Origin: Candidatus Bathyarchaeota archaeon
Lineage (GTDB): Archaea; Thermoproteota; Bathyarchaeia; 40CM-2-53-6
Length of the DNA stretch: 64,000 bases
Reading direction: 5' to 3'
Assembly (NCBI GenBank): GCA_963833125.1
Contig: CAWHWX010000001.1
Span: forward strand, 224,001 to 288,000
Numbering within the stretch: the stretch's first letter is position 1; each line of letters opens with the position of its first letter. Shown one piece after another: positions 1-2,659 of this stretch. Made by a program: the position numbers and the translations under genes. Below the pieces are notes generated by a model. It searched no databases, was not told the origin of the DNA, and saw only the letters and a program-made list of their open reading frames with translations.

Positions 1-121
1 GGAATTCTTCTTGGTATGGGAAGGGTTTGAAGTTTAGGAAGTTTCGTGCGAAGGTTATCGGGTCTCTGATGGAGTCGGCTACGTATTGGGCATATTTCTT
101 GAAGAGTTCATTTCGGTCTAT
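1..121 (-). CDS. Terminase large subunit, N-terminal fragment (runs off left edge)
   Basis: Manual translation of the minus strand from ATA at 121 gives (M)DRNELFKKYAQYVADSIRDPITFARNFLNFKPFPYQEEF. This matches the DP.xF...F.PxPYQ (Q-motif) opening typical of terminase large subunits. It overlaps the end of a TerS-like gene and is absent from the ORF track. Confidence 0.7.
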   Translation of the reverse strand, partial: MDRNELFKKYAQYVADSIRDPITFARNFLNFKPFPYQEEF

Positions 122-518
122 TTTTGAGCGCCTCTAAGATAAGCCTCGCCAACTCCTCTTCTCCCTCCTTGCCTGCTTGGGTTGTGATTCGGTCTTTGCG
201 TGTGACGGCGAGTCCTTTGAGGGCGGTTTCGATGATTTTTCTAAGCTTGGCTTGTGAGTCTGTGACGCGGCTGTAGGTTTCGTCGTTCGCTTTTTCAGAG
301 TCGAGGAGTTTTTCCACGTTTCTCATGTATATTGTGGCTCTGGCGATGGCGTCGATTTCTAGGTCGTCTACTTCTGGGTCGTAGCTTCCCAGTTTCTTCA
401 ACTCCCTGATTAGGGCGGCCTTGACGGTTTCGTACTCTTTCGCGTCCTTCTCGGTGAGGAGGGGCACTTTGTGGACTGGGGGTTTGCCGTTTCGTTGGGC
501 AGGGGTGGTGCTCTTCAT
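108..518 (-). CDS. Putative terminase small subunit (P27-like)
   Basis: Helical protein with YDPEVDDLEIDAIAR and LKGLAVTRKDR, resembling the LGLT.xR tail of P27-type TerS. It lies directly upstream of the TerL-like ORF, and its ATG at 518 overlaps the upstream stop (ATGA). Confidence 0.6.
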   Translation of the reverse strand: MKSTTPAQRNGKPPVHKVPLLTEKDAKEYETVKAALIRELKKLGSYDPEVDDLEIDAIARATIYMRNVEKLLDSEKANDETYSRVTDSQAKLRKIIETALKGLAVTRKDRITTQAGKEGEEELARLILEALKNRPK

Positions 519-931
519 TCCGACGCCCCAGGCGTCTTCAGCCACGCTCTGTTCCGTATGTATTGGAGGAGTAGGGTGTGGAGCAGTGTTTGCTGCGTCA
601 CGCCGTCCAAGCGTGCTCTCGTCAGAATTTTCTGTTTAAACTCTCTAGAGATGTGGATCGTAACGCTCTTGGTGTGCTTCTGCACGCCGACACCCTGGTT
701 ATCTTCGAGGCCTGTGTGGATTGCCTGAAAGATGAGAAGGGCCATGTTCGGGAACCCGCTCTCCTCAACCACCCTCCTCAGCTGATCATGTTCGTCGGCG
801 GATAATCGAATCCTCAACTTCGCCTTACCCCTCCCCCTCGCCGTGGCCTCGTCCCTCGTTTCTTCAGCCGATTCCCCCACACACCCAGCCCGCAGGCCTC
901 GTAAAGGAGAGTTGAGGTTTGCCGCTACCAT
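515..931 (-). CDS. Tandem ribbon-helix-helix DNA-binding protein
   Basis: Two RHH-like units (KLRIRLSADEHDQLRRVVEESG and SVTIHISREFKQKILTRARLDGVTQQTLLHTLL). Translationally coupled to the terS-like gene; true start uncertain. Confidence 0.6.
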   Translation of the reverse strand: MVAANLNSPLRGLRAGCVGESAEETRDEATARGRGKAKLRIRLSADEHDQLRRVVEESGFPNMALLIFQAIHTGLEDNQGVGVQKHTKSVTIHISREFKQKILTRARLDGVTQQTLLHTLLLQYIRNRAWLKTPGASE

Positions 932-989
932 CGTGGGTAGGGAGGTAGCTGAAACACTCGATTCTAGCCCAACTCAAACCCGAACCAAT

Positions 990-1175
990 TACCCACCCCT
1001 CCTAGCTCCGCACACCCTCAGCCGCGACCATTCCCTCCCACACACCACCAGCGAATGCCTCACACAAACCCCAAAACCAACCCCCCCACCCCAAAAAATG
1101 CACCACCCCCCACCACCCCACCCAAACACACACACGTGAATATCCACCCAACCACCAAACACAACTCCACACAGG
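990..1175. repeat. Low-complexity C/A-rich tract with multiple C-runs (G-quadruplex motif on minus strand)
   Basis: C7 at 1081-1087, C4 at 1089-1092, C6 at 1106-1111, C4 at 1116-1119 and C3 at 1121-1123; the + strand is nearly free of G. Confidence 0.75.
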
Positions 1176-1306
1176 TACTCGAAAATGACCCTGAAACGCG
1201 TACGCGGTACCATTGTACCGACAATGAAACCCCCGGCCATTCGATTGAGGTGCCGGATAAGGCTTAACTTAATCTAAGCTAGCAAATCCGTTCGAGTCAA
1301 ACCCCA

Positions 1307-1861
1307 TTGATGGATAAGAAGCGGATGCAGGAACTAACTGGTTCATTGCTTGAGGCGATCGGTGAGAACCCCAAACGCGAGGGTCTCAGAGACACACCCA
1401 GGCGGGTTGCGGACATGTTCGCTGAACTCACCGAAGGTTACGCTATGGACCCAAAGGAGATTCTGTCCAGAGAATGGAACGAAGTTAGCGGCATGGTGGT
1501 AGCAAAAGAGATCGGCTTCTTCAGTTTGTGTGAACATCACATTCTCCCCTTCTATGGGAAGGTGCATATCGGCTACATTCCATCGAAGGCGGTTGTGGGT
1601 CTTTCGAAGCTCGTCAGGATAGTAGATTGTTACAGCAAGCGACTCCAACTCCAAGAGCGAATGACTAAGCAGATTGCAGACGCTTTAAACGAAAACCTGC
1701 ACCCGCTTGGGGTTGTTGTAGTGGTTCAGGCTCGTCATTTGTGTATGGAGATGAGGGGTGTGAAGAGCGGCGCAGACATCCTAACCTCAGAAATCCGCGG
1801 CCAGTTTGAGAAGTTCGAGACACGGAATGAGTTCTTCAACATGCTCCGCAAAGAGGTCTAA
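1307..1861 (+). CDS. folE: GTP cyclohydrolase IA
   Basis: Motifs REGLRDTPRRVA, SLCEHHILPF, GLSKLVR, LQLQERMT and HLCMEMRG. Confidence 0.97.
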   Translation: MMDKKRMQELTGSLLEAIGENPKREGLRDTPRRVADMFAELTEGYAMDPKEILSREWNEVSGMVVAKEIGFFSLCEHHILPFYGKVHIGYIPSKAVVGLSKLVRIVDCYSKRLQLQERMTKQIADALNENLHPLGVVVVVQARHLCMEMRGVKSGADILTSEIRGQFEKFETRNEFFNMLRKEV

Positions 1862-2239: not shown

Positions 2240-2659
2240 TTAGTACTTTTCCACTTCTCCGCGTACTTGACCTGCCTTCAGGAGGGCGAAGTGATGAACG
2301 TCTGTGGGGACACGGAGTTTGCCGGTGTTGTGGATTCGATCTATCTTCTGGAAAGCCTCTCGATCAACATCCTTGTCGAACGTCAGCTCTCCACTGTTCT
2401 CAAGGTGGAAGTTACCAAGCTCCTTGTGAAGGCCCATGATGTCGGATTTGGAGAGGAGGACGGAGCCGGCGATGACTAACCTCTTTGTGTCAAATACATC
2501 TGGGCTTTCGGATGGAGTTTGATTCATATATTGAGTTAGGGCTTCGTTTACGAGGTCGGCGACGTTCTTCCCCTGCTGCTTTGCCTTGGCTACCACGTTG
2601 TTGTAGGTATCCCGATCTAACCCGCGAATCAGGACCGCATTGTTTGCCATGATAGCCAT
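2240..2659 (-). CDS. Ribbon-helix-helix domain protein with unknown C-terminal domain
   Basis: N-terminal VLIRGLDRDTYNNVVAKAKQQGKNVADLVNEALTQY is RHH-like. Confidence 0.7.
   Translation of the reverse strand: MAIMANNAVLIRGLDRDTYNNVVAKAKQQGKNVADLVNEALTQYMNQTPSESPDVFDTKRLVIAGSVLLSKSDIMGLHKELGNFHLENSGELTFDKDVDREAFQKIDRIHNTGKLRVPTDVHHFALLKAGQVRGEVEKY

Follow-up and report, generated by a model that had tools for sequence, protein, structure and literature searches.

The left edge of a 64,000-nucleotide stretch of a Candidatus Bathyarchaeota archaeon genome (assembly GCA_963833125.1, contig CAWHWX010000001.1, positions 224,001 to 288,000, hereafter called the window) carries what is well supported as a self-contained, capsid-less terminase cassette of about 2.17 kb, consisting of a tandem ribbon-helix-helix (RHH) protein, an HK97/P27-like small terminase (TerS) and a T4-type large terminase (TerL). 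Sequence comparisons also give good support for placing the cassette in a single Bathyarchaeia-specific lineage, kept intact by selection at unrelated chromosomal sites. As the best explanation of the whole, it is tentatively proposed that this is a capsid-less cassette using the procapsids of viruses. The source assembly (G000; 3.07 Mb in 39 contigs, 87.8% complete) contains the window as G000:C1:224001-288000. The cassette abuts the left edge of the window and a further 20 kb was read leftwards (L002). An earlier reading of the window from its letters and open reading frames (ORFs), here called the sequence-only reading, had described three genes on the minus strand between positions 1 and 931, and these were recovered as described: an RHH gene, a TerS-like gene and the 5′ end of TerL, the last read directly from the sequence and complete beyond the window (Table 1).

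TerL extends 1.2 kb beyond the left window edge. Its frame yields ...DPITFARNFLNFKPFPYQEEF and remains open for 446 codons to G000:C1:222793. The translation contains the motifs GRQVGKTT, MVILDEA, IGIDFG, LDKTG and THDD, which we take to represent Walker A, Walker B with the catalytic Glu, and the acidic residues of an RNase H-like nuclease. Residues G57, R58, Q59, G61, K62, T64, D152, E153, D281, D337, D418 and D419 are invariant among 19 aligned sequences. In Pfam, TerL matched Terminase_6N (40.6 bits, cut-off 22) and Terminase_6C (27.6 bits, cut-off 22.6), while the score with TerL_ATPase (22.5 bits) was under the cut-off of 23.7. Terminase families were matched in PHROG as well, with phrog_2 at an E-value of 6.5e-39. 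A profile of TerL and 18 relatives, compared with the PDB, returned ‘Phage terminase large subunit’ nuclease (5tge, 5m1f) and ATPase (4zni) structures and gp17 of phage T4 (3ezk, 3cpe). The sequence-only reading had seen the N-terminus and left the rest of the gene to a leftward extension of the contig; there, the Walker A and B motifs and the nuclease domain are all present. Since both Terminase_6N and Terminase_6C and the Walker and nuclease motifs are found, TerL is considered complete, and its identity as a T4-type large terminase is well supported, with packaging and cutting activity predicted. The best identities among 50,697 phage records (INPHARED) were 32% to MMP17, 28% to HGTV-1 and 27% to P74-26. 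Single-protein and alignment scans of IMG/VR, made with few peptide patterns, gave no close relative of TerL (best two loci at 22-28% identity), and a single-protein scan with few peptide patterns gave no close relative of TerS.

The sequence-only reading had noticed that the ORF track missed TerL, which appeared to start at ATA. This was borne out. The first ATG, GTG or TTG in the TerL frame is the TTG at residue 83, past Walker A, and because no canonical start lies ahead of Walker A, the gene is missed or cut short by ORF callers. When the DNA of five copies is aligned, the ATA of G000 coincides with ATG in G014b and G018, with TTG in G013 and with ATA in the closest copy. Among 61 distinct N-termini, the start column holds ATG in 23, ATA in 8, CTG in 8, TTG in 1 and other codons in 20; in most of the latter the frame is open further upstream, where the real start may be located. 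All seven distinct members of the G000 subgroup have ATA. In six of them an in-frame stop lies two codons ahead, so that the frame opens one codon before the ATA and read-in from upstream is impossible. Gene callers place the start of relatives at a GTG 13 codons past the ATA, where G000 has GTA; L106 also lacks this GTG. Between these two codons lies the peptide ELFKKYAQY, which is conserved in the relatives that start at ATG as well. As the ATA is found in seven independent assemblies, it is not a sequencing error. A GAGG occurs at −13 in seven out of seven members of the ATA subgroup; many members with ATG or CTG have it between −12 and −16. Because the GAGG also forms part of the coding sequence of TerS, its conservation carries no independent weight. 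The TerS stop is situated 9 nt inside the TerL reading frame. A programmed frameshift or indel at the TerS/TerL junction was considered and rejected: the ATG that overlaps the TerS stop as ATGA is in the third frame and is followed by only 10 codons. A slippery-site frameshift was dismissed as well, no slippery sequence being common to G000 and G014. Initiation at a near-cognate codon, recurring across the TerL family, is most likely on the basis of these alignments.

Table 1. Features of the terminase cassette and its upstream region, in window coordinates unless stated otherwise.
Feature	Position	Strand	Basis or remark
TerL, 5′ end	1..121	-	whole gene G000:C1:222796-224121, stop 222793-222795; 442 codons from ATA
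TerS-like protein, 136 aa	108..518	-	ATG overlapping the RHH stop as ATGA; alternative GTG start at 545
ATA at the TerL start-codon position	119..121	-	alignment with the start codons of relatives
Shine-Dalgarno-like GAGG	131..134	-	9 nt before the ATA
Tandem RHH protein, 138 aa	515..931	-	ORF and topology of the model
Conserved left end (5′ leader or promoter region)	932..959	-	DNA homology to G014 and L048 ends at 959
G-rich/T6/G4 motif GGGGGG..GG.G.A.TTTTTTGGGG (cassette strand)	1077..1112	-	167 nt upstream of the RHH start

The RHH protein was modelled with AlphaFold as two successive beta-alpha-alpha units (E36-43, H45-58, H63-76; E88-95, H96-109, H113-126) with a mean pLDDT of 69.7. The best fold matches, at E-values of about 1e-3 and above, were to chains E, F and G of the F-plasmid relaxosome (E-value about 1e-3, with an alignment of some 101 columns), DndE, a permuted single-chain Arc and AvtR; target TM scores were 0.65-0.72 and sequence identities 12-18%. 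The repeated unit and the matches to single-chain or tandem RHH proteins bear out the earlier designation as a tandem RHH protein. Sequence profiles stayed below threshold, with 17.8 bits for a NikA-like family (cut-off 27) and an E-value of 0.0048 for the Arc-like phrog_582.

The TerS-like gene is located immediately 5′ of terL in every locus that extends that far. Its product was modelled with three helices, including a long C-terminal helix (pLDDT 83). Structural comparison with the HK97 small terminase (8pop_A) gave a Z-score of 7.2 and an rmsd of 2.7 over 79 residues at 20% identity, ranked 29th amid helical noise; Foldseek matches to 8pop_A and 6z6e_A were weak (E-values 1.2-2) and no match at an E-value of 0.001 or lower was found in PDB or BFVD. 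The protein of G000 matched neither Pfam nor PHROG. Not one of 35 family members matched PF05119 (Terminase_4) at E-values up to 0.1 or any Pfam family over threshold, one of them reaching an E-value of 0.016 with Terminase_7. A neighbour cluster in the ESM Atlas (score 0.92) has PF05119 in 56% of its members. The earlier label ‘P27-like TerS’ is thus softly supported, with the fold resemblance lying within noise and no profile match, and is best regarded as a reasonable lead.

The sequence-only reading had seen in the RHH protein the module's own regulator, which is now doubtful: the fold is that of a DNA-binding protein of the relaxosome-accessory type, and in two loci (L099 and L112) RHH is fused in frame to TerS. 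These fusions point to a DNA-recognition partner of TerS rather than a separate regulator, and the RHH protein may be the DNA-recognition part of the small terminase, as far as the models and fusions can indicate. A complex prediction for RHH with TerS scored 0.00 and gave no verdict on binding.

The cassette recurs in related genomes. A TerL match at an E-value of 1e-10 or lower was present in 18 of 41 related genomes, G000 included, and in 11 of the 22 other genomes of the same genus, with up to five matches per matching genome. Six loci were fetched from related genomes; all six retained RHH-TerS-TerL and none shared a flanking ORF. About 466 homologous proteins were found, named by their sources as ‘Candidatus Bathyarchaeia archaeon’, and for a minority of them the genomic context was seen. 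A scan of GTDB genome contigs yielded seven loci, all in genomes already in the set. A metagenome scan returned 145 relatives, from which 80 loci were kept. After clustering of the 1,015 ORFs in these 80 loci, TerL was found in all of them and the TerS/RHH family in 72, while the next commonest family occurred in nine; by blastp, a TerS relative was present in 63.

The limits of the cassette were determined by comparison with the copy of the nearest genome (G014). The two copies are 81% identical in DNA; this similarity begins two bases beyond the TerL stop and is lost 28 nt ahead of the RHH start, and the boundaries of homology between G000 and L048 are identical. A left-end motif, GAGTGTTTCAGCTACCTCCCTACC, is common to G000, L047, L050, L052 and L054. 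Further upstream, a regular expression for the T6/G4 motif (Table 1) matched 93-167 nt upstream of RHH in six out of 25 distinct loci of different subclades; the background rate was 0.017 per 400 nt. This motif is a candidate terminator or insulator, promoter element or packaging site. The surrounding DNA (window 960-1200) is a C/A-rich spacer of about 250 nt, almost without G or T on the plus strand, which holds the sequence ccccaaaaaa (1089-1098).

The sequence-only reading had proposed to examine whether RHH-terS-terL is syntenic beside folE across related genomes and whether the TerL tree follows that of the host. The folE-queC block is present in all 22 genomes of the genus and the cassette lies beside folE in none of them. 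In the closest relative, G019, a DNA glycosylase gene is found upstream of folE, and the AbrB/PIN pair that neighbours the cassette in G000 adjoins a peptidase gene of a different contig. A copy with 63% identity is found in G016, some 8 kb away from the queC block of that genome. Judged by their flanks, the hosts nearest to G000 are G019 and G016 (82-88% identity), yet their TerLs are the most divergent (64% and 63%), whereas the flanks of G014 are 72-78% identical and its TerL 83%. TerL similarity thus disagrees with flank identity and the cassette does not track its host. Judged from these identities, it is not vertically inherited.

Genes for a viral head were searched beside the cassette. 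None were found in the 80 metagenome loci and the six loci from related genomes: blastp with portal, capsid and scaffold queries of a related provirus gave no match in the 80 metagenome loci, and phmmer with three portals, one capsid protein and three ABC-GNAT proteins gave none in 87 cassette-type loci. The view downstream covered at least 2 kb in 34 of 69 distinct copies, and at least 2 kb on both sides in 21. The ten largest ORFs close to TerL, downstream of it and in the same direction, were assigned by Pfam to an ABC permease, an aldo-keto reductase, a radical SAM protein, an E1 dehydrogenase, an aminotransferase and an acyltransferase, the remaining four being one integrase, two with weak or unrelated matches and one without a family. 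A tyrosine integrase adjoins the cassette in one distinct locus out of about 60, as detected with a hidden Markov model (HMM) built from the G000 integrases, which may be narrow.

The ‘gene-transfer-agent-like’ system suggested by the sequence-only reading would need head and tail genes elsewhere in the chromosome. Terminase genes under selection in a cellular genome would suit it, and genes could be missing from an assembly that is 87.8% complete. Against this, the models PF05065, PF04860 and PF05133 had no match in G000 or in the likewise cassette-bearing genomes G014 (100% complete), G018 (98%) and G016 (96%), while they detected the provirus of G013, and tblastn with the portal, capsid and scaffold proteins of this provirus gave no match in G000; the search comprised these three Pfam models and one provirus, so that very divergent genes could escape it. 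A gene-transfer agent is therefore considered very improbable. The other term offered by the earlier reading, an orphan terminase system, describes the locus well, as a discrete and recurrent three-gene unit under purifying selection without head genes in the 80 plus six loci.

Two more TerL loci were located in G000 by tblastn, on contigs C16 and C5. The first (G000:C16:449614-451731; L004 8614-10731) is a second capsid-less cassette with an RHH plus coiled-coil protein, in which TerL is split into ATPase and nuclease ORFs in different frames. Its DNA is about 90% identical to that of copies in G014 and G004, whose flanks are unrelated. Full head modules (portal, scaffold, capsid) in G013, G021 and G039 contain this split TerL too, which indicates that the split is conserved and probably functional. 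The third copy (G000:C5:588-1358; L005) is degraded over several frames at the start of its contig and is preceded by an RHH-like ORF.

TerL is a single open frame in 52 of the 54 distinct copies that are not cut by a contig end. Nei-Gojobori dN/dS ratios of G000 against five relatives were 0.08-0.12 for TerL, 0.14-0.28 for TerS and 0.2-0.28 for RHH, with dS at 0.5-2.2 where computable. By this measure the cassette is under purifying selection. Synonymous divergence (pS) was 0.30-0.41 in terS and the first 45 codons of terL (window 1-518) versus 0.55-0.67 in the middle of terL, in a small sample of five subgroup sequences that are not independent. The lower pS hints at constraint at the nucleotide level, for instance by a packaging site or a structure at the start site.

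In the class as a whole, 108 of 301 sampled genomes matched the TerL profile at an E-value of 1e-40 or lower. Twenty of these class loci, chosen among the best-scoring ones on long contigs, were inspected: a portal gene lies beside TerL in two, an ABC-ATPase/GNAT gene in nine and a CHAT protease gene in one, and the rest have none of these. In a tree of 75 distinct TerLs, 52 of the 55 cassette-type sequences fall on one side of a branch with an SH-aLRT support of 99. The opposite side comprises all portal-linked, ABC-GNAT-linked and other class loci, together with three cassette-labelled TerLs that lack RHH and TerS. Cassette TerLs are 60-87% identical across many cellular contigs. The nine ABC-ATPase/GNAT loci (L134, L135, L137, L138, L139, L140, L145, L148 and L152) come from other Bathyarchaeia families; in them, a single protein some 480-520 aa long that combines an ABC-type ATPase domain with a GNAT acetyltransferase domain adjoins TerL at the usual portal position. 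A role of the ABC-ATPase/GNAT gene as defence partner was rejected: tail genes lie upstream in L148, phage PHROGs are matched by the gene, and no cassette-type locus contains it.

These data bear on the possibility that the locus is an eroded provirus edge, left by the ordinary decay of an integrated head-tailed virus and comparable to the TerS-TerL relic in NitKor-E1. Such a precedent exists, since the NitKor-E1 pair was read as a likely relic in the accessible part of its description (PMC6563490), and the C16 type of cassette has close relatives in the full head modules of G013, G021 and G039. The degraded C5 copy, a frameshifted PIN gene nearby and a TerL without canonical start could also be signs of decay. 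However, 52 of 54 complete copies are intact, the same three-gene boundaries recur in unrelated contexts, portal fragments are absent from the 80 loci, the cassettes form one deep cassette-only clade, and the ATA and the peptide downstream of it are conserved over seven independent assemblies. A remnant, although it had been put forward in the sequence-only reading, is thus decidedly unlikely. Anatomy, intactness, selection, fixed boundaries and the single clade argue instead for a maintained stand-alone cassette and not for viral debris.

In L048 (5117-5257 and 6531-6670), L072/L073, L082, L070 and L075, direct repeats of the terminal 75-170 nt of TerL occur once or twice on its downstream side. 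The repeats bracket small cassettes of RelE-like/antitoxin pairs, a zinc-finger antitoxin pair and one possible recombinase. Extra copies of the TerL 3′ end were present in 12 of the 80 metagenome loci, some of which are mutual duplicates, and absent from G000. The pattern is as expected if other elements integrate into the 3′ end of TerL, as if the downstream side were a landing pad.

A discrete unit at many unrelated sites, present in several copies per genome, lacking an integrase, ending sharply on the right at the TerL stop and keeping a conserved motif at its left end, could also be a new element akin to a transposon, with the RNase H-fold nuclease of TerL as transposase and the RHH and TerS proteins as factors that bind the ends. 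Yet neither terminal inverted repeats nor target-site duplications were found in convincing form, since the best pairs of inverted sequences were 74-75% complementary in DNA of skewed composition, and the sharp right edge is equally explained by other elements inserting at the 3′ end of TerL. To our knowledge there is no precedent for a terminase serving as transposase, which also counts against this explanation, and we hold it to be improbable.

On the right, the cassette is followed by cellular genes. The sequence-only reading had estimated about 370 bp of non-coding DNA before folE; the measured distance from RHH to folE is 375 nt (window 931 to 1307). Pfam matches identify folE (GTP cyclohydrolase I), queD and queC. 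Between queD and queC, an ORF of 139 aa without Pfam match lies on the opposite strand (window 2240-2659, minus strand). To the left of TerL, a DUF433-like ORF, an AbrB/PIN pair, a second small pair and a UDP-glucose dehydrogenase gene are found. The PIN gene of the AbrB/PIN pair is in two frames in G000 (L002 16480-16894; G000:C1:221480-221894) and whole (153 aa) in the close relative G019 (L033 7418-7879); the split is either real decay or an assembly indel. The earlier statement that this flank has no integrase or tRNA held over a larger range: tRNA genes were absent from the 18 kb surrounding the module, and contig C1 had no match to the integrase family PF00589, all 12 matches in G000 being on other contigs. 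Neither an integrase, an att or tRNA site nor structural modules of a provirus were recognised at the locus, and both flanks consist of cellular or toxin-antitoxin genes. Likewise, no replication gene was recognised and an integrase adjoins the cassette in one distinct locus only, whereas satellites resembling phage-inducible chromosomal islands (PICIs) have an integrase, a replication module and helper-dependent induction. No RNA family was found in L032 6500-10500 at E-values up to 0.1.

With such neighbours, a host-domesticated nuclease/ATPase without capsid has to be weighed, in which RHH and TerS direct TerL to foreign or damaged DNA for defence or DNA processing in toxin-antitoxin-rich regions. 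Purifying selection and intact copies would be expected of a domesticated system, weak translation would suit a dangerous nuclease, and the neighbourhoods are rich in PIN/AbrB, RelE-like and HEPN/MNT-like toxin-antitoxin genes. In G016, moreover, a paralogous TerL adjoins a CHAT protease; the gene for this caspase-like protein lies downstream of TerL (L149 5747-7123; G016:C1). Nevertheless, the PADLOC defence models gave no match among the six proteins tested, the full architecture including TerS fits packaging and exceeds the needs of a nuclease, and the patchy distribution (11 of 22 genomes of the genus) in multiple copies looks more selfish than beneficial to the host. Domestication is accordingly viewed as unlikely, though it is the strongest of the competing explanations.

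For the use of viral procapsids by the cassette, the following mechanism is favoured. The RHH and TerS proteins would together mark a DNA site in or near the cassette, and TerL, produced at a low level from the near-cognate ATA behind the GAGG box, would supply the ATPase and the nuclease. Because the terminase comes without a host-encoded head, packaging would be possible only into the procapsids of an infecting or resident head-tailed virus. Headful packaging resembling lateral transduction would then carry the cassette and its downstream neighbours to new cells, and as a side effect the virus would be sapped. The repeats of the TerL 3′ end, the lower pS in terS and the 5′ end of terL, and the weak start all fit procapsid use, without proving it. 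The data show the anatomy, conservation and intactness of the cassette, its single clade, the absence of head genes and the non-AUG start position; expression, site recognition, capsid piracy and transfer are inferred, and the mechanism as a whole is held with a confidence that ranges from low to tentative.

Several points weigh against a capsid-less cassette that exploits viral procapsids. Neither a packaging site nor a helper virus was seen, nor any copy of the cassette in a capsid. No convincing terminal inverted repeats or target duplications point to a mode of relocation, and an integrase is adjacent in one distinct locus only. The copy in G000 has no canonical start, and if the ATA does not initiate there is no full-length TerL here. 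No HMM match places TerS in a known small-terminase family. The low dN/dS could partly reflect a history inside viruses before deposition; this is less likely given that no virus-borne member was found, in an IMG/VR scan that used few peptide patterns. The tree results from a quick LG+G4 search with midpoint root, and its cassette labels follow the sampling of loci. The frameshifted PIN neighbour means that there is some decay or assembly error in the region. Finally, among the sequencing runs searched, no RNA run contains the stretch and the best DNA run had 0.12 of the sampled words.

A wider and more doubtful proposal is that of ‘pirate terminase’ elements, a Bathyarchaeia lineage of three genes without its own capsid, integrase or replication genes that would load chromosomal DNA into the procapsids of passing viruses. 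If true, this would be an archaeal engine of lateral transduction. It would explain why small toxin-antitoxin cassettes accumulate at the TerL 3′ end, since packaging would begin with this DNA, and initiation at ATA, CTG or TTG would keep the nuclease tolerable until a virus arrives. Terminases are used as a hallmark of tailed viruses and for calling proviruses; if the cassette is indeed conserved and free-standing, a terminase match alone would not mark a provirus in these genomes, and the cassette would point to a new means by which viral capsids in archaea are exploited by chromosomal DNA or by a minimal selfish element. The hosts belong to a class of abundant sediment and peat archaea. Since ATA, CTG or TTG has repeatedly taken the place of ATG at a single start site, the TerL family is a natural test case for near-cognate initiation in archaea.

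In comparison with known systems, the terminases of the Thermus/Meiothermus phages (MMP17, P74-26, P23-45), of HGTV-1 and of T4 (gp17) have the same architecture of ATPase and RNase H-like nuclease as the cassette TerL. They are encoded in full viral genomes beside portal and capsid genes, whereas the cassette TerL has neither nearby and has a non-AUG start. The HK97 small terminase (P27, PF05119) resembles the cassette TerS in its position directly 5′ of terL, its small size, and its three helices with a long helix of the oligomerisation type. It differs in that none of the 35 TerS members matches PF05119 and the fold scores are within helical noise, while in the cassette DNA binding may come from the RHH protein. 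The matched F-plasmid relaxosome chains (9f0y, 9f0z, 9f0x) are presumably TraY. A relaxosome accessory binder marks a DNA site for a nuclease. Together with DndE, single-chain Arc and AvtR, the F-plasmid accessory protein shares with the cassette RHH the presence of two RHH units per chain; identity is limited to 12-18%, and the partner is a relaxase there and a terminase here.

PICIs and lateral transduction in bacteria offer a functional parallel. There, a chromosomal element with its own packaging specificity uses helper capsids, and the DNA that follows the packaging site is passed on at high frequency. PICIs carry integrase, replication and regulatory genes and usually encode only TerS, without TerL. 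The proposed cassette would share with them its own packaging specificity and the borrowed capsids; unlike the cassette, which is known from its genes alone, PICIs are bacterial and have integrase and replication genes.

In the literature on archaeal orphan or capsid-less terminases and on Bathyarchaeia terminases, as far as the texts were accessible, no description of the cassette was found, and supplements may list such loci. The accessible parts of four papers on Bathyarchaeia or archaeal elements (PMC11697101; bioRxiv 10.1101/2023.08.24.554615; PMC6393860; PMC11529989) report only ordinary proviruses or viruses. The closest published description found in these partial texts is the TerS-TerL pair of NitKor-E1 in Ca. 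Nitrosopumilus koreensis AR1, where the small and large terminase subunits are the sole Caudoviricetes-like genes, near toxin-antitoxin genes (Krupovic et al. 2019, PMC6563490). In the portion of that paper available, its authors call the function of the terminase enigmatic, regard it as a likely relic and state that no non-viral element had been found to carry the terminase complex. As described there, NitKor-E1 differs from the cassette as a single case within an integrase-bearing element, whereas the cassette consists of three genes without integrase, was met in 80 metagenome loci and constitutes a clade of its own under purifying selection; the two are set apart here by description, not by sequence. 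What they have in common, on the same partial description, is a TerS-TerL pair in an archaeal chromosome, with toxin-antitoxin genes as neighbours and no other genes of Caudoviricetes type.

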